This document shows, one piece after another, positions 2 to 15,254 of a DNA stretch of 39,644 bases. Both the position numbers and the translations under genes were made by a program. Below the pieces are notes generated by a model, which worked only from the letters and a program-made list of their open reading frames with translations, was not told the origin of the DNA and searched no databases. Source of the stretch: a virus. Lineage: Duplodnaviria > Heunggongvirae > Uroviricota > Caudoviricetes. Within the stretch, counting starts at the first letter, position 1, and each line of letters starts with the position of its first letter. The stretch lies in IMG/VR virus record IMGVR_UViG_2718218133_000003; one strand, 5' to 3'.

Positions 2-1297
2 TTAATTTTTTATTGCTTCGTTATGGGGCATGGTTGGGGCAAACTCGCTTAACTGTGTATTTAACAAAGCTACCTGTGCATTATTGTTTTCAGACATCCA
101 TTTTCCGTATACCTGAAATACCATTTGCGCATCTGCATGGCCCATCTGGTTTGCTATAAATGCCGGGTTAGCACCAGCTGTCAGCGACCAGCAGGCATAA
201 GTATGTCTCGACTGATATGATTTTCGATGGCGGAGTCCGGCACGTTTTATCGCTGCGTCCCACATCTGCCTTATTGAGTCAACGGTAAAATGGTCACCAT
301 AATTTTTTACTCTCGCTGACACTTCAGGTTGAAAAACAAAGGTGCATTTATGTTTTTCTGTTCTGCCATACTCTCTGAGGTGAACATCAATGATATGCTC
401 TTTGCTCAGTCTCGTTAATGTCATCTGACTCCGGAGAGCGTCGATTGCTGGCTTAATAAGATGAATGACCCGATTGGTTCCCGCCTGTGTTTTTGGTACC
501 GTGAAACGGTCTTTTGCTAAATTTCTCCTGATCATCATTGTTCCATTTTTCAGATCTATGTCCTCCCATCCAAGTGCACACAGCTCACCAGGGCGAACGC
601 CAGTATAAACAGAAACACACCATAAATTTTTGGCTTGCTGATTTCTGCACGCATCGATAAGACGGATGAATTCCTCCCGCGAAAGAGGATCCGGAATGGT
701 TCTTGATTCCTTTAATGGCGAGATCCCCTTAAACGGGTTATCTGCCAGGTAACCGTTATCAACACCAAACTGGAACACGGCGTTAAGATTTGTCATGTAA
801 TTATTTACAGTTACAGCCGATCTCCCTGGTTGTGTAACAATATAGTTACTTTTGGGGATCTGGTATCCAGTCAGTAGCTCTTTACGAACCTCCAGTAATT
901 TTTCTTTATTAATCGATGAGGCAAGATTTTTTTCACCGATTATGCTCAGGATATTTTTGATGACGGCACGGTATGTGTTGAGTGATGTTTTTGCGACTTC
1001 AGTTTCTTTCAGTGCCAGAAATTTTTCAGCCAGTTCTTTTATGGTTAAATCTTGTCGGGTCTCACCAAATTTTTCCAGATTGCGTGAGGAGGGAAACTGT
1101 TTTGCATAGTCGAAAACACCAGTTTTTATTGCGTAACAAACAGAGGCGCGTAGCTCACCTGCAACGCGCCTGTTTTTTGCTGTGTCAGGAACCCCCAGGT
1201 TTTCCCTGACTCTTACGCCTTTATAAACAAACCAGATACGTAATTTCCCTCCATGGTTTTCCACGCCTGTCGGATATTTCATTTCAATTTCTCTCAT
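2..1297 (-). CDS. int: Phage integrase, tyrosine recombinase family
   Basis: 431-aa ORF at prophage end, transcribed toward the end as in lambda; C-terminal R..H..R..Y-type catalytic region (HTYACWSL...QMGHADAQMVFQVYGKW). Confidence 0.9.
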   Translation of the reverse strand: MREIEMKYPTGVENHGGKLRIWFVYKGVRVRENLGVPDTAKNRRVAGELRASVCYAIKTGVFDYAKQFPSSRNLEKFGETRQDLTIKELAEKFLALKETEVAKTSLNTYRAVIKNILSIIGEKNLASSINKEKLLEVRKELLTGYQIPKSNYIVTQPGRSAVTVNNYMTNLNAVFQFGVDNGYLADNPFKGISPLKESRTIPDPLSREEFIRLIDACRNQQAKNLWCVSVYTGVRPGELCALGWEDIDLKNGTMMIRRNLAKDRFTVPKTQAGTNRVIHLIKPAIDALRSQMTLTRLSKEHIIDVHLREYGRTEKHKCTFVFQPEVSARVKNYGDHFTVDSIRQMWDAAIKRAGLRHRKSYQSRHTYACWSLTAGANPAFIANQMGHADAQMVFQVYGKWMSENNNAQVALLNTQLSEFAPTMPHNEAIKN

Positions 1298-1640: not shown

Positions 1641-4148
1641 TTAAGAATCAGCCTGACTCGGGATCAGTTTTTGCCAGATAACTGAAACGTATTTTGCCTG
1701 GTAACGGGCGTCATCAAGTGCATTATGGCGCTCACCTTCGAATGGAATAGCCGTTCTGGCATCGAAGTCTATGGCTTTCCCCAGCTCAACGATTGTGCGT
1801 ACATCGCGATCGTTGTAGTAACGCCACGGGCAGGGGATCCCCTGCCGTTCGTATGAACGGCGCAAAATCGTGTTGTCGAAGTTGGCTCCATTTCCCCAGA
1901 CCTGAACAAAAAATTCACCGGAGTTTTCGTCGATAAATTCCCGCAATTGTAACAGTGCATCATCTAACGGGATTTCATCGGTCATAATGGCAGATTGCGC
2001 TTCGCGTGATTGCTTAAGCCACCATTTAATGGTGTCCCGATCAATGACTCCGCCAGCAGTTTCCAGATCGATAGTCTTACTAAATTCCGGTCCCATATCT
2101 CCGGTTTGCGGATCGAAAAATATTGCACCTATTGAGATGATCGGGGCATCAGGATTTTTTCCCATGGTTTCAAGGTCGATCATTAGATGGTCACACGTCC
2201 TGCTGGTGGATGTGATTTCTTGATGACCGTTCACCTTAATTGAGTGATCTGCCGTCTCGCCAGTTTCATTATCGCTATCGTGATGCTGATTGCCGACAGT
2301 GTTCTCCTTGTGTGGATGTTCAGCGCCTTCCATTTCCTCCGGATCATCTTCCTGAACTTCAACCTGATACTCTTCATCGAATGTTTCCTGGTATGTTGCG
2401 TCGCCCATTACCGCGCCACAATCAGGGCAGTTGCCGCCGCCGGTCTGACCGCAGGCGGTGCAGACTTTTTCCACTTCCTGTTGCGCCACTGATTCAGGCT
2501 GTTTCGTTTCTGGCTCGTTTTGTAACGCATTTGGGCTGTTTTGTTCCGCTTTTTGGTAGTTCCGTTCCGATTCATGCTGGTTCTGGTTCACAGAATCGCG
2601 GGTCTGGATCCCCTTAACCCATTTCGGATCATTCGGGTCACTAATCCCTTCAACAAATTCACCACGTGATGCAGCAAGCAACTTATCGGCGTCAGGCTGG
2701 ATGATATTGGCTGCCTGCATAATTTTGTTTACTTCGTCAGCGGTAACTTTTATCGGCTCTGGTTGTTCTGAATCTTCAGCGGTATCTACATTTTGCGGTA
2801 AGCCCGTGTATGTGCCATTTTTTCGGGCAAAATATTCTTCTTTTGTGATTTCAGTGGCGCCAGCAGCCAGTGCCTTATCCAGACCAGAAAGTTTGTTTGC
2901 GCGACCGTATTTTTCTCCGTCCTTATCTGCGAAGAGGAAATAGAACGGCCCCTCACGCTCTACAGATGGTTCAGCTTCCGGCGCGGTTTCATTTTTTGGG
3001 ATATCAGATACCTCAGTTTCCACTGCATCAGTTTGTGTTTCTGATGACTGGAGAACATCAACAGTGCCCAGGTCTGTTTCTTCATTCTCAAACACGCCCT
3101 TTGTCGTCAGGTATTCGCAGATATATTTGTTCAGTGCTACGGGATCTTTGTGAATGTCGATCGGACGCTCACGGACAAGGCCAAAAATAGTTTGGCGGTC
3201 GTAGCGAAGGGCATCAGGCTGTTTGCGCATTGATGCCGAGATACGCTTCCAGTCTTCGCGGTCGTTGTCGATAACTTCATTTTTTGCCCAGCGATGGATG
3301 CTGCCGTCAATGTTTCCGGCATCCACATCACCAGGCCAGAGAGCGTAGGCCAGTTCGTCATCCAGTGTTTTCCATGTCTGCTTGTATTCGCGATGAATGG
3401 CAGCAATGACCGGGCTGATTTTTCCTGTTGAATTTTCAGTGTACTGTTGATTGGCTCTGGCGCGGGCGAGATCAACAACAGACGTGTATTTTCCGGTTTC
3501 CTTGCGTTCACCTTCGCGACGTTTTTTCCAGATGCGCATCTCTGCCTGAATTTCGGGCCATTTAGCACCAGGAATACATTTATGCTTAACCCACCCAATG
3601 GCGTGCAACTTAAGCTCCGGATACATGGCGTTAACTTCTGGCATTTTCATCAACGCTTCAACGATATGTCCGTCGAATGTTGCCATGTCTTCCTGCAACA
3701 ATTCCTGTGCGCTAATAACCATATCAACGGTGATGTTTTCACATGTGTCGAACTTAACCATGACAGCGTTCTGTACTTCAGGGGCCAGCTTGTCAAAAGT
3801 GACGTTCATCGGATCGGATTCAGTCTCAACCGGGACAAAAGAAGCAGACTCCTCATCCCAGCGGTTTTCCTGCATATATTCAGCATCCCATGAATCGAGG
3901 GCAGGGCGGGGTATGCCAGGTTTATCCTCGCAGACAATAAATTTATAAGCGCAGTCCTGAGCAGCCGGATAATGTTCCAGGAATTGCCAGTGAAATTTTG
4001 CTCGAGCACGGCGTTCGTCGCCAGCTTCAATGGCTGTGGCTACAGCCACAGCGCCTTCTTCCCTTGTTGCCAGTTCGTCAGGAATAGCGGCGCAAATAAA
4101 GACTTTACTCATTTGTTTTAACCTCATGACAGATTTAAGGATGAACAA
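1641..4148 (-). CDS. Large phage exonuclease with C-terminal DnaQ-like DEDDh 3'-5' exonuclease domain (full-length form of the ydfE-type gene)
   Basis: 835-aa ORF; C-terminus shows Exo I (LMIDLETMG), Exo II (VWGNGANFDNTIL) and Exo III (HNALDDARYQAKY) motifs; sits in the exo position between xis and the kil-like genes. Confidence 0.8.
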   Translation of the reverse strand: MFILKSVMRLKQMSKVFICAAIPDELATREEGAVAVATAIEAGDERRARAKFHWQFLEHYPAAQDCAYKFIVCEDKPGIPRPALDSWDAEYMQENRWDEESASFVPVETESDPMNVTFDKLAPEVQNAVMVKFDTCENITVDMVISAQELLQEDMATFDGHIVEALMKMPEVNAMYPELKLHAIGWVKHKCIPGAKWPEIQAEMRIWKKRREGERKETGKYTSVVDLARARANQQYTENSTGKISPVIAAIHREYKQTWKTLDDELAYALWPGDVDAGNIDGSIHRWAKNEVIDNDREDWKRISASMRKQPDALRYDRQTIFGLVRERPIDIHKDPVALNKYICEYLTTKGVFENEETDLGTVDVLQSSETQTDAVETEVSDIPKNETAPEAEPSVEREGPFYFLFADKDGEKYGRANKLSGLDKALAAGATEITKEEYFARKNGTYTGLPQNVDTAEDSEQPEPIKVTADEVNKIMQAANIIQPDADKLLAASRGEFVEGISDPNDPKWVKGIQTRDSVNQNQHESERNYQKAEQNSPNALQNEPETKQPESVAQQEVEKVCTACGQTGGGNCPDCGAVMGDATYQETFDEEYQVEVQEDDPEEMEGAEHPHKENTVGNQHHDSDNETGETADHSIKVNGHQEITSTSRTCDHLMIDLETMGKNPDAPIISIGAIFFDPQTGDMGPEFSKTIDLETAGGVIDRDTIKWWLKQSREAQSAIMTDEIPLDDALLQLREFIDENSGEFFVQVWGNGANFDNTILRRSYERQGIPCPWRYYNDRDVRTIVELGKAIDFDARTAIPFEGERHNALDDARYQAKYVSVIWQKLIPSQADS

Positions 4149-6097: not shown

Positions 6098-6517
6098 TTA
6101 AGAGGCTTTTTGTTTTTTCTTTCGTGCTAACTCTTCGTAAATTGCATTGTACTTCTGTTTTTTCTCTTCAAGAGTTTTTAAAAGTTCATCTGTCTCACTG
6201 TCAGGGAGCTCGTCCAGAAGGTCAATGATGATTTTTTGTCTTGGATTTAACTCCTGATAGAAACGTACCTGTCCACTTTCTTCTGTATCCTCTCCCAAAA
6301 GATAGGTTGGTGTTGTTCCTATTAGTGTTGCTAATTCCCTTAATTTCTCCCGGCGAGGAATTGTTTCGCCATTAAACCATTTGCTAACCGCTTTTGGTGT
6401 TAATTTCATTCGACGGGCAATTTCTGCCTGCCTTCCATGTTGTTCATAACCAGCGTTTTCACAGGCTAGCGCAAGCCTACTGGCGAACTCTTTACGCGCT
6501 TTATCTTCATGAACCAT
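6098..6517 (-). CDS. Prophage repressor, HTH XRE family (cI/DicA position), no LexA-like S24 domain
   Basis: 139-aa ORF with helix-turn-helix (QAEIARRMKLTPKAVSKWFNGETIP); divergent from Cro-like gene; apparently leaderless start (no Shine-Dalgarno). Confidence 0.8.
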   Translation of the reverse strand: MVHEDKARKEFASRLALACENAGYEQHGRQAEIARRMKLTPKAVSKWFNGETIPRREKLRELATLIGTTPTYLLGEDTEESGQVRFYQELNPRQKIIIDLLDELPDSETDELLKTLEEKKQKYNAIYEELARKKKQKAS

Positions 6518-6540
6518 AAGTTCAATGATATTCGCTCTTG

Positions 6541-6573
6541 AATGTACTGTCAGTTCTGTTATAGCATGTACTC
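6541..6573. promoter_or_regulatory. Operator-like repeats (OR-type) in the divergent repressor/cro intergenic region
   Basis: AATGTACT at 6541..6548 and ATGTACT at 6567..6573 between the divergent genes. Confidence 0.45.
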
Positions 6574-6596
6574 AAAGTTCACATTGTGAGGGTGAT

Positions 6597-6851
6597 ATGA
6601 ACCAGAAAACACTTGAAGATGTAATCAAAACTGTTCGCGTTGCTGTTGTGGCCGACGTTTGTGGTGTCAGCCAAAGAGCAATCTATAAATGGATGGATAA
6701 CGGAAAATTGCCTCGCACAGAATATACCGGCGAAACAAATTACGCTGAAAAAATCGCTCTTGCATCAAACGGATTATTTTCTGCCGATGCAATTTTAACT
6801 ATTGGCAGGAATAAAACTACTACGAAAAAGCTGATGGGAGTTGATTCATGA
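6597..6851 (+). CDS. Cro-like HTH DNA-binding protein (YdaS-like)
   Basis: ATG at 6597 with GAGGGTGA upstream; HTH motif VADVCGVSQRAIYKWMDNGKLP; divergent from repressor. Confidence 0.7.
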   Translation: MNQKTLEDVIKTVRVAVVADVCGVSQRAIYKWMDNGKLPRTEYTGETNYAEKIALASNGLFSADAILTIGRNKTTTKKLMGVDS

Positions 6852-7273
6852 AAATCAAGCATGAACACATCCGCATGGCGATGAATGCCTGGGCGCATCC
6901 GGACGGCGAAAAAGTACCGGCTGCGAAAATTACCAAAGCGTATTTCGAGCTGGGAATGACGTTCCCGGAACTGAATGACGACAGCCATCCGGAAGCCCTG
7001 GCTCGCAATACCCAGAAAATTTTCCGCTGGGTAGAGAAAGACACCCCTGATGCAGTTGAAAAAATTCAGGCGTTGTTACCAGCGATCGAAAAGGCAATGC
7101 CACCTTTGCTGGTGGCCAGAATGCGCAGCCACAGTTCAGCTTATTTTCGGGAGCTGGTGGAGACGCGGGAGCGACTGGTGAGAGACGCTGATGATTTTGT
7201 CGCAGTGGCAATCGCCGGTTTCAATCAGATGAACCGTGGTGGCCCGGCAGGAAATGCTGTGGCAGTACATTGA
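6848..7273 (+). CDS. YdaT-like (CII-position) protein
   Basis: 141-aa ORF beginning MKIKHEHI, recalled as the characteristic YdaT family N-terminus; ATGA overlap with upstream gene. Confidence 0.6.
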   Translation: MKIKHEHIRMAMNAWAHPDGEKVPAAKITKAYFELGMTFPELNDDSHPEALARNTQKIFRWVEKDTPDAVEKIQALLPAIEKAMPPLLVARMRSHSSAYFRELVETRERLVRDADDFVAVAIAGFNQMNRGGPAGNAVAVH

Positions 7274-7344
7274 CTGACAATAGCCATATCGAATCGCTTC
7301 CGGCAACTCGTGAGTAAAAAGATTCGGTATCAGAAGAGGTGAGT

Positions 7345-8415
7345 ATGGCTAACGCCTGGCTCAGATTATGGCATGACATGCCAAATGACCCTAAGTGGCG
7401 AACAATTGCCAGGGTGTCAGGGCAGCCAATTGCAACAGTGATGGCAGTGTATATCCACCTCCTGGTGAGCGCGTCACGAAATGTCACGCGAGGTCACATT
7501 GATGTCACGACAGAAGATTTGGCAAGTGCGCTCGACGTGACAGAAGAGGTAATTGATTCAATTTTGCAGACGATGCAGGGGCGGGTACTTGATGGTGATT
7601 TAATCACTGGATGGGAAAAACGCCAGGTGCTGAAAGAGGACAACGGCAATATTTCGCAAACCGCAAAATCTCCGGCAGAGCGCAAGAGGGCGCAGCGAGA
7701 GAGGGAAAGAAAGCGGGAACAAAATGGCGATTGTCACGGCGAGTCACGAAATGTCACGCACATGTCACGACGAGTCACGACAGATAAAGATACAGATAAA
7801 GATACAGATCAAGAAGATCAAAACACTATGGTCCATGGCGTAAAAAACGCCACGAACCAGGCAGGGGATGTTCAGACCGTCACTCCTGGCCAGCCCGCAG
7901 GCACGACACCGGAAGCCGATTCAGCGTATGCGCTGAAAGCCGATTCGGGCGCTGTGCAGCAGGTGATGACCGCAAGGCAGGAGCAATCACACCAACTTCA
8001 GCAGCCTGAAGCCGATTCCGCCATTCAGCGGGAAGCCGATCGGGTAGTCCCGGAAAACACCGGGCAGCCTGTGGGACGAGTGGATTATCCTGATGTGTTC
8101 GAACAGGTCTGGCGGGAATACCCGTTGCGTGCCGGGGCAAACCCGAAGAAATCCGCTTTCAGTGCCTGGAAAGCCAGATTACGCGAGGGGGTGCCACCAG
8201 AGGCCATGCTGGATGGTGTGAGGCGTTACGCAAGATACCTTGCGGCTACCGGGAAAACGGGAACGGAATTTGTTCAGCGAGCGACGACGTTTTTTGGACC
8301 GGACCGGCATTTTGAAAACCCCTGGCTGCTCCCGGTAAGCGGCACGAACAACCAGCGTTGTGTGAATCATATTTCTGAACCGGATAACGAAATTCCGCCG
8401 GGCTTCAGGGGGTAA
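7345..8415 (+). CDS. Replication initiation protein, O-like, with embedded iterons
   Basis: Position after cro/cII-like genes; SD AGAAGAGG; internal DNA iterons encode repeated VT-rich peptides; GTG at 7339 is an alternative start. Confidence 0.6.
   Translation: MANAWLRLWHDMPNDPKWRTIARVSGQPIATVMAVYIHLLVSASRNVTRGHIDVTTEDLASALDVTEEVIDSILQTMQGRVLDGDLITGWEKRQVLKEDNGNISQTAKSPAERKRAQRERERKREQNGDCHGESRNVTHMSRRVTTDKDTDKDTDQEDQNTMVHGVKNATNQAGDVQTVTPGQPAGTTPEADSAYALKADSGAVQQVMTARQEQSHQLQQPEADSAIQREADRVVPENTGQPVGRVDYPDVFEQVWREYPLRAGANPKKSAFSAWKARLREGVPPEAMLDGVRRYARYLAATGKTGTEFVQRATTFFGPDRHFENPWLLPVSGTNNQRCVNHISEPDNEIPPGFRG
7471..7780. repeat. Candidate origin of replication: two clusters of GTCACG iterons at about 10-bp spacing, followed by a GATAAAGATACA x2 tandem repeat
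   Basis: GTCACG at 7473, 7483, 7504 (GTCACA at 7493) and at 7733, 7744, 7753, 7763, 7773; inverted copy near 7545; tandem gataaagataca at 7784..7807. Confidence 0.6.
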
Positions 8416-8455
8416 GTGTTAATTTCTGGTCATGAGGTAATTTTCAGGAGGGCTT

Positions 8456-8872
8456 GTGGCAAAAGTTTTTACACAAGAAGAGCGGGAAAAAATTAAAGGA
8501 CAGGTTCTTGAACTCGTACGCCAGAGTGGGCGCGAGACGTTACGACAACTGGAAGCTAAAACTGGGGCAACAAGATATCTGATGAGCGTTCTGGCCAGAG
8601 AGCTGGTTGCCAGTGGCGATGTATACAATTCTGGCTACGGGTTATTCCCGTCTGAACAGGCGCGTAAGGACTGGCAAAATGCCCGTAAAAAGCTCTCAAG
8701 GGCAAAGCTGAAGAAACCATCTGCGGTTGATCCGGACCTTATCTGGTCATTACCTGATGGAGAAATACGTCGTTACGACAGGCGTCATAATATGATTTGT
8801 ACTGAGTGTCGTAAAAGCGAAGTTATGCAGCGCATATTGTCGTTTTATCAGGGGGATGTTCGGTTTTATTGA
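8456..8872 (+). CDS. Hypothetical protein, GTG start, in the position normally held by the helicase loader
   Basis: 138-aa ORF with strong AGGAGG 7 bp upstream of GTG; no recognisable motif. Confidence 0.5.
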   Translation: MAKVFTQEEREKIKGQVLELVRQSGRETLRQLEAKTGATRYLMSVLARELVASGDVYNSGYGLFPSEQARKDWQNARKKLSRAKLKKPSAVDPDLIWSLPDGEIRRYDRRHNMICTECRKSEVMQRILSFYQGDVRFY

Positions 8873-9139
8873 AGTGACGAGATTAAAGTGCATTAGTTCA
8901 GATGCAAATTGACATTTTGTGGCACAGGGTAGAGCTAGCGTGGTTGTCCGCTTTGTGCCAACAGCGGACATTATGGAAGGTCAGAGTTAAAGATTAAAAT
9001 GGGATGCTGTGTGTTTTCTCCAGGTTTTGCTCTATACCTTTCGGGATACTCCACCGACAGAATACGAAAATCAACATTATCAACGGCTCGAAGTGTCTAG
9101 ATTATCCATGGCAATTCATGGGAAATCCCATCCAACGGC

Positions 9140-10531
9140 TTATGCTTCATGTTGCTTTTTGAGATCGCTTCTAGCATAGCTCCACTCAATAATGTTGTCG
9201 GGTCGTTGCTGATCGAAAAGGATACGGGATTCAATACCATTACCTAAAAAGCTGGTATTCCCATCTACGTAAGAAGCTATCCCTTGTGAACCAACACGAA
9301 GAATATTTTCTAATGGCTGCTTTGTTCTTGCTGCATCGCTAAGGAGATATAAACCCGGGTACGTTTTGTTAGCACGGTGAAAAAAAAGTTCATTGTCAAA
9401 ACACATGACGATGATTATTTGTCCCGACATGAGATCGGAGAGCATTTCAGTTGGCAGATGCAAACTCATAAATGGTCGAGACAAAGGGTCAAAGAATGAA
9501 TCATTTATATTCACAACAGGGCTTTTTATACCGAGACTATCCATCCATCCATTGAAGGCAACAAAGCCCATTTCAGAATCACGGTACATACCTAAGAACA
9601 AACATTCATCAATAGTATCAATTGCCCAATTTTTTCCTCCGCGAATAATCTCCCACATTTTAACTAAGCGGTGGGTATAAAATTCAGACGGATGATCTAT
9701 CTCATTGATTTTAACTTTAGACTGATGAAAGTTGTCAAAGCCCTCGCCAGTATTAATCGCCTCCAGAACATTCATGCCACGAATGATTTGCCTTTTTATG
9801 CGATTAAATTGCTTAACATCATTATCAGGCATATTGTTAATGAAGTTTTCTTCAAAGTGCGGACATTCTGAGATAACAGAAAATTCAGCAGCTTCATAAA
9901 GCTCATTATTCTTTTCACCTGTTTTAACTTCCACGAGCTGGAAGCCATCCAGTAGATTAAAGGTGACTAAATCTCCCACATGAACAAATGTGCTCATGTC
10001 AGAGACAATCGCTACGGAGTGTTTGTCCTGGTTGATAAGATCGGCTGCGACCATAGAATCAATTATGTTATCTTCTGATAGATTGTCATTGCTTGCATTA
10101 ATAGGTAAACGCCGCAAACTAGAGTGTTCTTCATCAAGAATGCTCCAAATTATTGAGTCAATACAACGGCGAAGAATAAGAATTTCAAATTTTTTTAAAC
10201 TTATTTCATCAATACACTTTTCTTTATTTTCTTTATCCTTGTTTCGATGGTGCTCTTTTTTTTCAGTTTCCAATCTTTTTATATCTCTCAGCCGAATAAT
10301 AATCTCAAAAGATATGATTTTTTGTGAGTCTTTCCAATTTTTGAGACAGGTTTCATACTCTGCAAGAAAATCCTCATCATTGGAAGGTAGTTCTTGAATT
10401 GGATTCCCTCCCCTTATCATTTTGGCAAGTGCATGCATTAAAGATACATAATGAGGTGATAAAATTGTCCAAAACTTCCTAAACGGTTTGTACTTTTCAA
10501 GAAAAGTTGACTCATCAGTATAATTCATCAT
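9140..10531 (-). CDS. Hypothetical 463-aa protein, AT-rich, possible PD-(D/E)xK nuclease motif; candidate defence component
   Basis: ATG at 10531 with GAGG about 8 nt upstream; motif HVGDLVTF...QLVEVKTGE fits D...E.K; codon and base composition clearly more AT-rich than flanking phage genes. Confidence 0.6.
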   Translation of the reverse strand: MMNYTDESTFLEKYKPFRKFWTILSPHYVSLMHALAKMIRGGNPIQELPSNDEDFLAEYETCLKNWKDSQKIISFEIIIRLRDIKRLETEKKEHHRNKDKENKEKCIDEISLKKFEILILRRCIDSIIWSILDEEHSSLRRLPINASNDNLSEDNIIDSMVAADLINQDKHSVAIVSDMSTFVHVGDLVTFNLLDGFQLVEVKTGEKNNELYEAAEFSVISECPHFEENFINNMPDNDVKQFNRIKRQIIRGMNVLEAINTGEGFDNFHQSKVKINEIDHPSEFYTHRLVKMWEIIRGGKNWAIDTIDECLFLGMYRDSEMGFVAFNGWMDSLGIKSPVVNINDSFFDPLSRPFMSLHLPTEMLSDLMSGQIIIVMCFDNELFFHRANKTYPGLYLLSDAARTKQPLENILRVGSQGIASYVDGNTSFLGNGIESRILFDQQRPDNIIEWSYARSDLKKQHEA

Positions 10532-10620
10532 AACCAAACCTCATTCCTCTTATCTATTTTCCTCAAGGTATAAAATACCAGCCTTTTTTACATAATTATA
10601 GTTATAATATGAAGTCTCAT

Positions 10621-11490
10621 TCAGATATCTTCATACTGTACGTAAGAAATATTTGAGCCTCTGATACCATAATCTTCTAAACTGCCTGATTTTTTCTCAC
10701 CTCTATATAAAGCAACTATCCATCGAGCATTTTCTTGGATGCTTTTATTTATTTCAGTAAAGTATTCACCGTCAACTTCGGCGAGCGAGTGGCCTAAAAC
10801 GATGACCTCGTCCACATTTTTAAGCGATGAGAAAAAAACGTTTTCTTCTTTAATTATGTCTTCGCTGGGCTTGAATGTATTACCGAAGTATTCGTTTATT
10901 CTGTCGTATGCCTCTGCTATTCTTGTATCTTGATCCGGTCCTATATATGGATTTAGTGACTTTTCCACCCTAAAACTATGACCAAGTATGAGATCGTCAT
11001 CGTAACTACAATTGCCGTGAATATGTATGATTTGCTCGTCTGGAACGGCATAGATCTGCTGCAAGGTATTTGTATAATTAAATGAAAAATAGATGCTTTC
11101 TCTTGGTATGGGCGGGATGTATTGCTTAGGATTGTAAGCATCGGCTATGTTAATCCCTTTAACCCAATCAGCGAATTGCTCCTTCAAACGAGCTGACAGC
11201 ATTTGTGTGATTTTATTTACTTCATATTGGTAATCGTGATGATAAGCATCGCTCCAATCATCGGTATTGTATGAAGCCAAAAATATCTCACTGTTTTGAA
11301 GGATAAGCTCATAATCAATTTCACCTAAAGCATTTTCTAACTCATTCCACTCGTCCCCAGCAGGAATGTATTCTTCTATCGCGTCATATAGATCTTGGTC
11401 ATTTTTTTCTACATACGACTTAAAGTGCTTGTATCCTGTTGGTAAGCCATGACGCATGTCAAATCCATTTCCTATTATGTAAAGCCTCAT
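10621..11490 (-). CDS. AbiH-like abortive-infection family protein (candidate defence component)
   Basis: Start MRLYIIGNGFDMRHGLPTGYKHF matches the IIGNGFD..HGL N-terminal signature recalled for AbiH (Pfam PF14253); AAGGGA Shine-Dalgarno; AT-rich. Confidence 0.6.
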   Translation of the reverse strand: MRLYIIGNGFDMRHGLPTGYKHFKSYVEKNDQDLYDAIEEYIPAGDEWNELENALGEIDYELILQNSEIFLASYNTDDWSDAYHHDYQYEVNKITQMLSARLKEQFADWVKGINIADAYNPKQYIPPIPRESIYFSFNYTNTLQQIYAVPDEQIIHIHGNCSYDDDLILGHSFRVEKSLNPYIGPDQDTRIAEAYDRINEYFGNTFKPSEDIIKEENVFFSSLKNVDEVIVLGHSLAEVDGEYFTEINKSIQENARWIVALYRGEKKSGSLEDYGIRGSNISYVQYEDI

Positions 11491-12105
11491 TGTTTTTCCC
11501 TTAGTCGAATTGTATAAAAATACTAACATGGCCTGCTCCACGTTGACTACTATCCCCTCCTTTGAGTAATGCCTTCATCAGATGTAACAACATTTGCGAG
11601 CTTCCACAGTTCGCTCAAAGCGGACTAGAAGGTTAGCTTGCGTCGGACTTGGCGTATTTAAAGAAGTGCTGGTGGAGACTGGTTGTTGTGTTCCATTTCT
11701 ACAGAACAAAATCACAGAAACTATACCCAATAGTTATATTGAATCAATGATGAGACAGCCTCATATTTATCAGGACTGGTGTACGTCCAATACAGGAGGT
11801 TGTCGTGCTGGTTCTCAAATGTGCGCTAGCTATTGCGGCTGTAATGGCAATTTATTGTCTTGCTGTTGTTCTTACGGATCGCCTTTCTGATTGATTTTAT
11901 ATTGGCGAGGTGACGTGAGTTAAGTAGAATTGCTGCGGGTGCTTGAGGCTATCTGCCTCAGGCATGAACACCAAAGGCAGATAGAGAAAAGCCCCAGTTA
12001 ACATTACGCGTCCTGCAAGACGCTTAACATTAATCTGAGGCCAATTTCATGCTAGACACATGTAGGTTAGCCTCTTACGTGCCGAAAGGCAAGGAGAAGC
12101 AGGCT

Positions 12106-12261
12106 ATGAAGCAGCAAAAGGCGATGTTAATCGCCCTGATCGTCATCTGTTTAACCGTCATAGTGACGGCACTGGTAACGAGGAAAGACCTCTGCGAGGT
12201 ACGAATCCGAACCGGCCAGACGGAGGTCGCTGTCTTCACAGCTTACGAACCTGAGGAGTAA
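12106..12261 (+). CDS. hokD: Hok/Gef family type I toxin (HokD/RelF-like)
   Basis: 51-aa product MKQQKAMLIALIVICLTVIVTALVTRKDLCEVRIRTGQTEVAVFTAYEPEE; in-frame upstream extension to 12049 gives a 70-aa mok-like frame. Confidence 0.9.
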   Translation: MKQQKAMLIALIVICLTVIVTALVTRKDLCEVRIRTGQTEVAVFTAYEPEE

Positions 12262-12330
12262 GAGACCAGGCGAGGGAGAAATCCCTCGCCACCTCTGATG
12301 TGTCAGGCATCCTCAATGCACCCGCACTTA

Positions 12331-12356
12331 ACCCGCTTCGGCGGGTTTATTTTATC
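12331..12356 (+). terminator. Intrinsic terminator downstream of hok
   Basis: Hairpin AACCCGC-ttcg-GCGGGTT followed by a T-rich tract. Confidence 0.6.
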
Positions 12357-12719
12357 TGTAAATATTTTTATAAAAATAATGCCCACACACAGCATAAAAC
12401 AAAAAGTATCACAGATAAAAAAGGAGCGTAATGTGCAGATTTGTTGTTTTCCATATTTACTCACTTTAACATAATCAAAATTGATATGGTTGTTGTTTTG
12501 GTGGTTTCAAACGAGATGTTATGGTGATCTGGTAAAATTGCATAACATTAAAATTTAATTTATCTAATCGCTTTTAATAATAAGCGTTGTGTTTATCCCA
12601 ACAATCTGTTGTTTGATTTTTATTCCATTAATGTAGGGGCTTTACACTGGAACCAGTTTATTTATACTTTATACGCCAGCCTGAACAACTGGCACCTGCT
12701 GCGCCAGCAGAGACAACCG

Positions 12720-12998
12720 ATGGCGCACGATACCAAATTACACAATTCTGATGATTCTGCCGTCTTTGCCAGCAGGTGCGGACGGCGTTTTCATGCATTC
12801 AAATCGGACTGGTTCCAGCATCCACCATGCACTGAAGAGCAGGCTGAATGGATAATTCAGTGTTACCGCAGGCGCGGATACGAGGTTAAAAAAGCCCTTA
12901 GCCTCGACTACCGTCACTGGATAATCTCAGTCAGATTGCCTTACTCCGAACGCCCACCGCGTCCGTCCCGTACATTCCAGCAACGCATCTGGAGGTAA
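12720..12998 (+). CDS. rem: Rem-like small protein (Qin rem position)
   Basis: Synteny hok-rem-ydfU as in Qin; start MAHDTKL inside the longer ORF 12609..12998; assignment by position rather than recalled sequence. Confidence 0.4.
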   Translation: MAHDTKLHNSDDSAVFASRCGRRFHAFKSDWFQHPPCTEEQAEWIIQCYRRRGYEVKKALSLDYRHWIISVRLPYSERPPRPSRTFQQRIWR

Positions 12999-12999
12999 C

Positions 13000-14049
13000 G
13001 TGCGGGTATTACTTCGACCTGTTCTGGTACCGGAACTCGGGCTGGTGGTCGTTAAGCCGGGCCGTGAATCCATGCCGGTATTCCACAATACCCGGGTACT
13101 GGTGGAGCCGGAACCGAAAAGCATGCGTAATCTGCCGTCCGGGGTCGTTCCTGCCGTTCGCCAGCCGCTGGTGGAAGACAAAACATTGCTGCCGTTTTTC
13201 AGTAACGCACGGGTAATTCGTGCTGCTGGTGGTGCTGGTGCATTGTCTGACTGGCTGTTGTGCCATATTAAATCCTGCCAGTGGCCACACGGCGATTATC
13301 ATCACAGCGAAACCGTTATTCACCGTTATGGTACCGGCGCAATGGTGTTGTGCTGGCACTGCGACAACCAGCTGCGTGACCAGACATCCGAATCACTCGA
13401 GCAACTTGCTCATCAAAATCTGTCAGCATGGATGATTGACGTCATCGGTCACGCAATAAGCGGTACGCAGGAGCGTGAATTATCTCTGGCTGAATTATCC
13501 TGGTGGGCGGTCCGCAATCAGGTGGCGGACGCGCTACCGGAAGCGGTATTACGTCGTTCGCTGGGGTTGCGTGCGGAAAAAATCCGCTCAATGTACCGTG
13601 AAAGCGACATCGTACCGGGAGAGCAGACCGCCACCAGCATACTGAAACAGCGCACAAAAAATCTTGCGCCGCTGCCTCACGCCCACCAGCAACAGAACCC
13701 ACCACAGGAAAAGACGGTGGTCAGCATTGCCGTTGATCCTGAGTCTCCGGAATCTTTCATGAAACGACCTAAACGTCGCCGCTGGGTTAACGAGAAATAC
13801 ACACGCTGGGTGAAGACACAGCCGTGTGCGTGTTGTGGTAAGCCAGCCGACGATCCCCATCACCTGATTGGTCATGGTCAGGGCGGAATGGGGACAAAAT
13901 CTCACGATATTTTCACGCTACCGCTGTGTCGGGAGCATCACAACGAGCTTCATGCGGATCCGCTGGCGTTCGAAGAAATGCATGGTTCTCAGGTTGATTT
14001 AATTTTTCGTTTTCTTGATCACGCCTTTGCAACTGGCGTGCTTGGGTAA
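13000..14049 (+). CDS. ydfU: DUF968 family protein (YdfU-like) with C-terminal HNH-like Cys/His motif
   Basis: 349 aa, the same length as K-12 YdfU; C-terminus CACCGKPADDPHHL...CREHHNELH. Confidence 0.7.
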   Translation: MRVLLRPVLVPELGLVVVKPGRESMPVFHNTRVLVEPEPKSMRNLPSGVVPAVRQPLVEDKTLLPFFSNARVIRAAGGAGALSDWLLCHIKSCQWPHGDYHHSETVIHRYGTGAMVLCWHCDNQLRDQTSESLEQLAHQNLSAWMIDVIGHAISGTQERELSLAELSWWAVRNQVADALPEAVLRRSLGLRAEKIRSMYRESDIVPGEQTATSILKQRTKNLAPLPHAHQQQNPPQEKTVVSIAVDPESPESFMKRPKRRRWVNEKYTRWVKTQPCACCGKPADDPHHLIGHGQGGMGTKSHDIFTLPLCREHHNELHADPLAFEEMHGSQVDLIFRFLDHAFATGVLG

Positions 14050-14061
14050 AAGAGGTGACTG

Positions 14062-14436
14062 ATGCTCATAGATTTGGTTTTACCTTACCCGCCGACGGTG
14101 AACACTTACTGGCGACGCCGTGGCAGCACATATTTTATCTCGGAGGAGGGAAAGCGTTATCGCCGGGCTGTGGCGCTTATTGTTCGCCAGCAGCGGCTGA
14201 AATTAAGCCTGTCCGGAAGGCTGGCGATAAAGGTGATTGCAGAGCCACCGGATAAGCGTCGTCGCGACCTGGACAATATCCTGAAAGCACCGCTGGATGC
14301 GCTGACGCATGCGGGAGTGTTAATGGACGATGAGCAGTTTGATGAAATCAATATCGTTCGTGGTCAGCCAGTATCTGGTGGACGTCTGGGGGTGAAGATT
14401 TACCCCATAATGCATGAAGAGCAGGTCAAAAAATGA
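14062..14436 (+). CDS. rusA: Holliday junction resolvase RusA
   Basis: 124-aa ORF; LPYPPTVNTYWRRRG N-terminus and DLDNILKAPLDAL motif typical of RusA; nin-region position upstream of Q. Confidence 0.85.
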   Translation: MLIDLVLPYPPTVNTYWRRRGSTYFISEEGKRYRRAVALIVRQQRLKLSLSGRLAIKVIAEPPDKRRRDLDNILKAPLDALTHAGVLMDDEQFDEINIVRGQPVSGGRLGVKIYPIMHEEQVKK

Positions 14437-15254
14437 AACTGGAAGATTTACCGAAATACTACTCCCCAAAATCCCCTTGCCTGACCGATGCATCGGCCTC
14501 AACGTCAAAAGATGCGCTGAGTATCACTGATGTGATGGCCGCGCAGGGCATGACACAGAATCGGGCTGAGATGGGGTTTTCTGCGTTCCTGGGGAAAATG
14601 GGCATCAGTATGAATGACAGGGCGCGGGCAACAGAATTACTGGCAGATTATGCACTCAGTCGGTGCGATCGTGTGGCGGCGTTGAGAAAACTTCCGGCAG
14701 AAATAAAACCGGTAGTGATGCGCATTATGGCTTCGTACGCTTTTGAGGATTATGCCCGCAGCGCAGCGAGTAAAAAGCAGTGCCCTTGTTGCTATGGGGA
14801 AAAATTTATTGAAAGCGTAGTTTTTACAAACAAGGTCCAGTATCCGGATGGTAAGCCGCCGGTATGGGCAAAGTGTACGAAAGGTGTGTATCCGTCTTAC
14901 TGGGAAGAATGGAAAAAAGTCAGGGAAGTGGTAAAAGTTGCCTGTCCGGAGTGTGGCGGAAAGGGTGAGGTTTCCACCGCCTGTAAGGATTGCCGTGGGC
15001 GTGGTGTCGCCATTCACCGTGAAGAGTCGGTAAAACGTGGTATGCCTGTTATCAGAGACTGCCAGCGTTGTGGTGGTCGTGGCTATGAAAGACTACCATC
15101 AACGGAGGCATTTAATGCTATATGCGAGGTGACAAACCAGATAACACGCGCGTCATGGGAAAAAACAGTTAAGAAATTCTATGATGCGCTGGTGACCCGG
15201 TTTGATATTGAAGAAGCATGGGCTGAGCGGCAGTTAAAAAAGGTAACTAGGTAA
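14433..15254 (+). CDS. Q: Late gene antiterminator Q (phage 82/21-like, zinc-binding)
   Basis: 273-aa ORF with CPCCYG...CPECGGKG...CKDCRGRG...CQRCGGRG zinc-finger-like motifs; immediately upstream of a pR'-like promoter. Confidence 0.8.
   Translation: MKLEDLPKYYSPKSPCLTDASASTSKDALSITDVMAAQGMTQNRAEMGFSAFLGKMGISMNDRARATELLADYALSRCDRVAALRKLPAEIKPVVMRIMASYAFEDYARSAASKKQCPCCYGEKFIESVVFTNKVQYPDGKPPVWAKCTKGVYPSYWEEWKKVREVVKVACPECGGKGEVSTACKDCRGRGVAIHREESVKRGMPVIRDCQRCGGRGYERLPSTEAFNAICEVTNQITRASWEKTVKKFYDALVTRFDIEEAWAERQLKKVTR

Follow-up and report, generated by a model that had tools for sequence, protein, structure and literature searches.

The window analysed here is a stretch of 39,644 nucleotides (nt) of a Caudoviricetes genome (IMG/VR record IMGVR_UViG_2718218133_000003), and it represents a lambdoid, Rac-like prophage. 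Its replication initiator gene, in the following called the rep gene, contains two arrays of the hexamer GTCACG and, next to the second of them, an A-rich tract. Judged from sequence, these arrays together with the tract are very probably the prophage's origin of replication, situated within the gene that encodes its initiator. The original prediction, made from the letters of the window, had proposed a probable prophage origin at this place. It is supported by selection acting on the hexamers, by conservation of the layout in 51 of 60 family genes, by the position at a domain junction, and by the fact that the family heads replication modules. Origins located inside initiator genes are already known; of the element in this E. 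coli prophage gene we found no description in the literature searched. The elements in question are the following (window coordinates; aa, amino acids).

7345..8415, plus strand: replication initiator gene, 356 aa; start codon ATG at 7345, preceded by the Shine-Dalgarno sequence GAGGTG, GTG at 7339 as alternative start (open reading frame finder)
7473..7509, plus strand: iteron cluster 1, with GTCACG at 7473, 7483 and 7504 and GTCACA (one mismatch) at 7493
7536..7541, minus strand: inverted hexamer copy, CGTGAC on the plus strand, 27 bp past cluster 1
7733..7779, plus strand: iteron cluster 2, five perfect GTCACG at 7733, 7743, 7753, 7764 and 7774
7780..7823, plus strand: A+T-rich, purine-skewed tract, (ACAGATAAAGAT)x2.9 then CAAGAAGATCAAAAC; candidate DNA unwinding element and mosaic junction

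Repeat arrays inside the rep gene

Successive copies are spaced 10, 10 and 11 bp apart in cluster 1 and 10, 10, 11 and 10 bp apart in cluster 2, and cluster 1 lies about 260 bp upstream of cluster 2. The two GTCACG clusters at one-turn phasing that had been predicted are thus confirmed, as three copies plus GTCACA and as five copies. Equally borne out were the inverted copy at 7536-7541, the short AT-rich tandem repeat (found by Tandem Repeats Finder at 7780-7814 as 2.9 copies of the A-rich 12-bp unit ACAGATAAAGAT) and the placement inside coding sequence: all arrays and the A-rich tract fall within the open reading frame 7345-8415 on the plus strand. The repeated NVT/VTT peptide segments expected from this arrangement are present as well, as SRNVT at aa 44-48 and again at aa 134-138, plus DVTT and RVTT.

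A repeat finder aligned clusters 1 and 2 to each other (direct repeat D1); between the inverted copy and units of cluster 2 it reported matches of 12 nt (inverted repeats I10 and I11). Chance clustering is ruled out, because nine of the 26 GTCACG copies in the window lie inside 307 bp, for which dinucleotide shuffles expect 0.12 (Poisson probability of at least nine, 1.6e-14; ~6e-10 once every window position is allowed for). Besides the two clusters, three GTCAC/GTGAC copies inside 45 bp occur nowhere in the 39.6-kb window. No perfect DnaA box or IHF consensus was found in 7000-8600.

Selection on DNA versus protein

The hexamers of the window use all three codon phases, 2, 0, 1, 0 in cluster 1 and 1, 2, 0, 2, 0 in cluster 2. 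Synonymous codon usage was analyzed in 25 non-redundant genes of the GTCACG class, at amino-acid-conserved codons only. The synonymous-codon entropy is 0.26 bit for the 13 codons with their third base inside a hexamer, as opposed to 1.51 bit for the 51 others (Mann-Whitney p = 2e-7). Fixed codons of cluster 1 are V47 GTC, T48 ACG, G50 GGT, H51 CAC, and V54 GTC, each in 23 of 23 genes. V65 is encoded by GTG in 20 of 20 relatives, such that the GTGAC of the inverted copy is kept. At V41, A60, L63 and the third base of R49, a spacer position, three to five codons are in use. These codon data indicate that the hexamers are under purifying selection at the DNA level.

According to a first alternative, the repeats are a functionless by-product of the peptide sequence, of codon bias, or of replication slippage. 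The peptide ASRNVTRGH..VT is indeed highly conserved, and the DKDKD tract could be a low-complexity linker. However, the peptide repeat is no source of the arrays, because a period of 10-11 bp is not a multiple of three, and all phases are used. Synonymous sites are fixed in the hexamers while adjacent conserved codons vary, and the cluster-2 hexamers outlast peptide change: two relatives of ~70% identity have GTCAC(G) copies in both places and keep the 10-bp phase, although their cluster-2 peptides differ. The codon data rule out that the repeats arose purely at the level of the protein, and we consider the by-product explanation as a whole exceedingly improbable.

The same alternative has difficulty with stop-prone cores. 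Copies of the GTCACG class are distributed over the three phases with 83, 54, and 52 members. The phase that would create a stop codon (TAA/TGA) is used by none of the 37 GTAACG copies (L105, L107, L114, L118, L124, L125) and by none of the six GTGACG copies (L136), versus 52 of 189 copies for GTCACG; in these seven loci the copies lie at gene nt ~130-460. Because the stop-prone classes re-phase rather than lose their arrays, the arrays appear to be kept despite their coding cost. This is a clear sign, at the level of sequence, that the putative binding array and the reading frame constrain each other. Copies in the GTAACG and GTGACG loci are often spaced 20-21 bp apart.

Distribution of the arrays among relatives

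The family set comprises 60 genes, i.e., the window gene and 59 relatives from Proteobacteria and Acidobacteria. A scan with the N-domain alignment, one genome per species, gave 57 loci (gamma-, beta-, and alpha-proteobacteria, Acidobacteria, and others); a scan of viral contigs with the single rep protein returned only loci of 99-100% identity and added no diversity. A phased hexamer array is found in 51 of the 60 genes and both clusters in 46, at gene nt ~128-160 and ~350-450. The genes are distributed over the cores as follows.

GTCACG: 27 genes
GAACGC: 16 genes
GTAACG: 6 genes
GCAACG: 1 gene
GTGACG: 1 gene
no clear array: 9 genes

Spacings in the GTCACG class are 10 bp in 94 cases and 11 bp in 27, and the hexamers have weak flanking preferences outside the 6-bp core. 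More distant relatives carry other cores in the same two places, GCAACG in Ralstonia phage Hennie and CGAACGC in a metagenomic podovirus. Strict helical phasing between the two clusters was also considered and is unsupported, with distances ranging from ~219 to 247 bp in roughly 9-bp (three-codon) steps.

The relatives without clear arrays are L111, L113, L126, L129, L130, L133, and L135, plus the enterobacterial L127 and L137. The latter two have CTACGTAG-type repeats at gene nt ~325-375 instead of the usual arrays, and their N-domain is fused to a different C-part (YVYYV...GISRNPWAR) that by eye looks GIY-YIG-nuclease-like.

The iteron class tracks the phylogeny of the N-domain, computed from residues not encoded by the iterons. 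Moreover, cores differ among elements of one host genus (GTCACG or CGAACG in Pseudomonas), and therefore an element-encoded recognition protein is favoured over a host factor. This bears on a second alternative, by which the arrays are bound by some other protein, be it the cII/YdaT-like or DUF977 product, a partition, packaging, or host factor, and serve transcription control, segregation, or packaging. It is well established that short repeats spaced by one turn are typical of plasmid centromeres and of some operator arrays, too. Yet it is the N-domain alone that is always linked to the arrays. The relatives L001, L002, and L004 have different neighbours, with a helicase or loader gene downstream and no DUF977; the variation of cores within a host genus argues against a host factor; partition genes are absent from the vicinity, and more than 13 kb separate the arrays from the terminase genes. 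We therefore regard binding by another protein as very unlikely.

Two circular P. aeruginosa 'plasmids' of 50.9 kb, L145 (CP137943.1) and CP124671.1, are non-mobilizable and consist of a lambdoid phage genome. It has an N-domain gene of 73% identity, with a DnaB-like gene after it. On circumstantial grounds, these circles are probably circular replicating phage genomes or phage-plasmids.

The A-rich tract beside cluster 2

The least stable 40-mer of the rep gene, and of the whole region 6500-8900, starts at 7784, with a free energy (dG) of -43.4 kcal/mol compared to a window mean of -54.4 (standard deviation 4.8). The tract 7780-7823 has 71% A+T and 71% purines on the coding strand, versus 46% and 58% for the gene. 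This composition is shared by all array-bearing loci: in 51 of 51, the window included, the A+T content of the first 45 nt past the final hexamer of cluster 2 exceeds that of the respective gene (median 69% versus 46%; Wilcoxon p = 2.6e-10). Asp and Lys in the tract are nearly always encoded by GAT and AAA, also in GC-rich hosts. In 46 of the 51 loci an AGATA[AC] repeat begins at most 22 nt from the last hexamer, irrespective of the iteron class.

Being kept across iteron classes and phyla, this AGATAA(A/G)A / AGATAC repeat past the hexamers is more specific than plain AT-richness. A repeat of the AGATAA type also follows the GGAACC hexamers in orf11 of the lactococcal phage r1t (L146 4250-4295). 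Furthermore, the tract contains two GATC (Dam) sites 9 bp apart, at 7807 and 7816, out of only three in the whole rep gene; chance in a GAT-rich repeat could suffice to explain the pair.

The position of the tract bears on a third alternative, in which the arrays are initiator sites for control, i.e., autoregulation of rep, titration, or handcuffing, and replication starts elsewhere. Such a role would fit the separation of the two clusters by 260 bp, the inverted copy that lies in between, and the lack of an AT-rich tract next to cluster 1; extra iterons for control are common in iteron-type replicons, as is well established (reviewed in PMC4980987). In contrast, cluster 2 always stands directly before the least stable AT-rich tract, as do the iterons in lambda ori (PMC7466680) and the repeats in SPP1 oriL, and the window has no other repeat cluster. 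A control function of cluster 1 is, besides, compatible with an origin at cluster 2. We hold it to be very unlikely that the arrays serve control alone.

The initiator protein and its domains

Three parts of the rep protein are distinguished.

7345..7629, plus strand: N-terminal winged-helix-like domain, aa 1-95, putative origin recognition (AlphaFold2 model, sub-threshold PF09681/TIGR01714)
7816..8412, plus strand: exchangeable C-terminal domain, aa 158-356, presumed partner-recruitment module (swaps among phages, PHROG matches)
8341..8412, plus strand: DnaT-like C-terminal tail (...NHISEPDNEIPPGFRG), NF002770 positions 156-179 of 179

The protein matches phrog_3729, 'replication initiation protein', from end to end (E 4.6e-256). 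In phages and E. coli its gene is labelled 'hypothetical', 'DNA replication protein O', 'primosomal protein I' (the annotation in phages Evi and POCJ13), or 'phage replisome organizer', the last being the NCBI name for the protein and its close relatives. No Pfam match was obtained at E <= 0.01, Phage_rep_O included. Residues 5-123 align to positions 1-119 of 121 of PF09681 with 16.5 bits (cut-off 23.3), and residues 5-125 to positions 1-119 of 119 of TIGR01714 with 19 bits (cut-off 49.8). These profile alignments mark the N-domain as related, though distantly and below threshold, to that of the 'phage replisome organizer' family. A sequence search of solved structures with the rep protein gave nothing significant, and weak matches to the DnaT C-terminus only.

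An AlphaFold2 model was computed for aa 1-160 from an alignment of 66 sequences. It predicts a confident helical domain with helix-turn-helix and wing (aa ~4-90), composed of helices 4-14, 16-25, 29-45, 56-63, and 67-77 and a beta wing at ~78-88, with a predicted local distance difference test score (pLDDT) of 85-94 across most of aa 11-90. A basic helix (aa 110-130) and a disordered segment (aa 130-160, pLDDT < 50) are predicted to follow. Because of this fold, cluster 1 would encode a loop of the putative DNA-binding domain, namely the one between helices 29-45 and 56-63 (SRNVTRGHIDVT), while cluster 2 (gene nt 389-435) and the A-rich repeat would code for the predicted disordered linker.

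The C-domain matches phrog_1701, 'DnaD-like helicase loader', and phrog_9327, 'primosomal protein'; it has no Pfam match, and neither a Phg_2220_C nor a DnaD type was recovered. Over its last 24 residues (SEPD..IPPGFRG) it can be aligned to the very end of the host primosomal protein DnaT (NF002770 156-179, E 3.6e-4) with 19-20 bits, the family cut-off being 201. Since this score is far below the cut-off and positions 156-179 alone are aligned, only the tail matches DnaT. Orthology to DnaT was accordingly discarded for the protein as a whole, whose remainder is unrelated. The tail, as S(E/Q)PD..IP.GF(R/K)G, also ends relatives with otherwise differing C-domains, and it may be a short motif touching the host primosome; in the literature, we found no function described for this tail. 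A true DnaT DNA-binding domain (PF17948) is present in some of the relatives.

Prophage setting and modular exchange

The surroundings of the rep gene comprise the following genes.

2-1297, minus strand: integrase
1641-4148, minus strand: RecE-like exonuclease
6098-6517, minus strand: cI-like repressor
6525-6851, plus strand: cro-like helix-turn-helix gene
6848-7273, plus strand: cII-like/YdaT gene (PHROG 'CII-like transcriptional activator' E 1.8e-45; Pfam YdaT_toxin E 7e-10)
8456-8872, plus strand: DUF977/Ren-like gene, next after the rep gene
9140-10537, minus strand: AT-rich gene for a 465-aa protein, no match in Pfam, PHROGs, or PADLOC
10621-11541, minus strand: AT-rich gene for an AbiH abortive-infection protein (Pfam E 8e-69)

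RusA and then Q come after the two leftward genes. With its cII/YdaT-like gene, RecE-like exonuclease, and integrase, the prophage has a Rac-like left arm combined with a different replication module. Past this module the leftward gene pair (9140-11541) is inserted, with a GC content of 30-40%; the 465-aa protein may act as an unknown partner, or its gene may be a defence gene in its own right.

Neither between the rep gene and Q (8456-15254) nor elsewhere in the window did we find a helicase or helicase-loader gene, and the module is for this reason termed 'initiator-solo'. Relatives have such genes directly downstream, a Toprim-DnaB primase-helicase in L001 (3397-5226), a DnaC/IstB loader in L002 (3361-4101), and DnaB in L004 (3340-4704), from which we conclude that the rep family heads replication modules.

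At a coverage of at least 80%, the rep gene is present in 1646 of 5426 complete E. coli genomes; the gene of E. coli MDR_56 is 100% identical. Searches of phages with tblastn reveal that its protein is modular: Pseudomonas phage 5371 and Aeromonas phage pAEv1818 share aa 1-138 at ~70% identity but have unrelated C-termini attached, while aa 158-356 stand behind unrelated N-termini in PhiR5_2, Shigella phage 75/02 Stx, SfV, and Stx phages. Partial E. coli matches extend up to gene nt 458 or set in at nt 476, i.e., the mosaic breaks fall in the A-rich tract. Taken together, these comparisons indicate that the N-domain and the arrays travel as one unit, whereas C-domains and downstream helicase or loader genes are swapped, with the break in the A-rich tract.

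Could the tract and the arrays persist chiefly as a recombination hot spot for the exchange of phage modules? The breaks at gene nt 458-476 lie within the A-rich tract, and an AGATAA-type tract common to very different lineages offers microhomology. But helically phased, lineage-specific cores and frozen synonymous sites would be left unexplained, and breaks are equally expected at the linker, where a two-domain protein tolerates joints. We consider this explanation highly improbable; a role as a hot spot may be a by-product of the linker position.

SfV orf39 (L144 1470-1580), which joins the rep C-domain to another N-domain, contains a 21-bp repeat with internal dyad in four copies (TGGTGCAGGAGATTCACTAGG); by their sequence, these are probably its own lambda-style iterons. 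As a rule for C-domain relatives with other N-domains, own iterons are not upheld, as Shigella phage 75/02 Stx has only a (CAAGAA)n tract.

Proposed mode of initiation and its assessment

If the arrays and the tract are the origin, initiation may be pictured as follows. Rightward early transcription after induction, running through the cro-like, cII-like, and rep genes, would yield the initiator, whose putative N-terminal winged-helix domain would bind the hexamers. As these are spaced 10-11 bp apart, they would all lie on one face of the helix, and cluster 2 would become the seat of an oligomeric nucleoprotein complex; cluster 1 and the inverted copy are presumed to be auxiliary or regulatory sites. 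The complex would destabilise the neighbouring (GATAAA/GATACA)n tract, which has the lowest stability in the operon. A helicase would then be recruited by the exchangeable C-domain; because the phage encodes no helicase or loader, it would have to be that of the host (DnaB and DnaC), and the DnaT-like tail may serve in its recruitment.

Several observations weigh against an origin of this kind. Nine of the 60 relatives are without clear arrays. Co-inheritance of iteron class and N-domain is no proof of recognition, because the arrays lie inside the gene and linkage alone predicts it. The conserved peptide ASRNVTRGH..VT places cluster 1 under protein-level constraint, too. The rep N-domain stays below the Pfam and NCBIfam cut-offs for the replisome-organizer family, and Foldseek comparison of the N-domain with the PDB gave weak, non-significant matches (E > 0.1), albeit consistently to winged-helix regulators. 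With no helicase or loader gene in the window, the helicase-loading step is speculative. GC skew around the rep gene merely tracks the direction of transcription and holds no origin information. In the literature we found no paper describing the rep family and no binding or origin-activity experiment on it.

A more far-reaching view can be formulated, which in its entirety we regard as a long shot. In this proposal, the window would exemplify a widespread, undescribed class of origins in temperate phages of Gram-negative bacteria, with the sites written into the code for the DNA-binding domain of the initiator, such that the two codes would tie the evolution of the protein to that of its sites. 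Beyond being AT-rich, the conserved (AGATAA)n repeat, which r1t has as well, would act as an element for specific recognition or for helicase entry, and the solo initiator would load host DnaB without a phage loader by mimicry of the DnaT tail.

The location of the putative origin and its defining bases could serve as a marker of replication compatibility that distinguishes five or more iteron specificities among these prophages, and they would improve the annotation of a very common prophage gene. They also indicate which fragment to use for origin-based vectors or for interference tests with the origin in trans. Beyond this, the rep family is a clean natural case of overlapping codes, in which coding sequence meets a helically phased, putative binding array.

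Comparison with known origins

Plasmid origins of the iteron type have a winged-helix initiator acting on direct repeats by an AT-rich unwinding region, and the iteron sequence sets the specificity (PMC4980987). The window resembles origins of the RepA/pi family in its direct repeats, AT-rich neighbour, and predicted winged-helix initiator, and putatively in a replicon specificity set by the iterons. In contrast to its intragenic hexamers, the plasmid iterons measure ~17-22 bp and are located outside the rep gene, usually together with DnaA boxes.

The lambda origin consists of four iterons, each an inverted repeat, and an AT-rich tract in the middle of gene O (PMC7466680); in the lambda annotation, four contiguous 18-bp iterons occupy gene nt 349-433, followed by an A-rich, purine-rich tract on the coding strand. 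Placement within the gene is thus nearly identical to that of cluster 2 (gene nt 389-435). Further common features are the two-domain initiator whose N-part carries the origin specificity (putatively so in the window), the position of the rep gene after analogues of cro and cII, and, as in the six-iteron variants of Stx phages, the gain of protein residues with extra iterons. Unlike lambda, the window has direct 6-bp cores every 10-11 bp in two arrays instead of 18-bp dyad iterons, and it has no P-like helicase-loader gene downstream. The parallel to lambda ori that the original prediction had drawn therefore holds for intragenic iterons with an AT-rich tract, whereas the short repeats at one-turn spacing are closer to SPP1 gene 38 and r1t orf11. 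Likewise, 'O-like' is an apt name for the gene by analogy of layout but not by homology: apart from the missing Phage_rep_O match, the best BLASTP hit of the rep protein to lambda O (E 0.04) covers the low-complexity linker only, and homology to O was rejected.

Among Gram-positive phages, SPP1 G38P binds oriL, which is located in its own gene 38 (PMC5615212). Among lactococcal P335-type phages, Rep2009 of Tuc2009 and ORF13 of TP901-1 bind direct repeats inside their own genes, these repeats being the origin, and ORF11 of r1t is a homologue of both (PMC8965321). 'Initiator alone' modules are known from this group as well (PMC8965321, citing Weigel and Seitz 2006). We read the genes of r1t and SPP1 for comparison. 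r1t orf11 contains GGAACC four times at 11-bp spacing, followed two bases on by AGATAAGAATAGATTAGATAAGA; SPP1 gene 38 contains, within the oriL coordinates, GACAC three times at 11-bp spacing and then AT-rich 9-bp repeats. In both, the repeats sit between the parts coding for the N-domain and the C-domain (Phg_2220_C).

The window shares with SPP1 and r1t the short direct repeats at about one turn and the AT-rich repeat tract in the linker part of its own gene. It differs from them in the C-domain of the rep protein, which is not Phg_2220_C, in the Gram-negative hosts and other iteron cores, and in an additional upstream array inside the region coding for the DNA-binding domain, together with an inverted copy. 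Comparison of the rep family with r1t ORF11 by hhalign gave a probability of 13%, i.e., no significant protein similarity. While homology of the proteins is thus not established, the layout of the window is, by its sequence features, closest to the replisome-organizer origins of SPP1 and r1t, and the 'replisome organizer' origin layout of Gram-positive phages would thereby extend to Proteobacteria.

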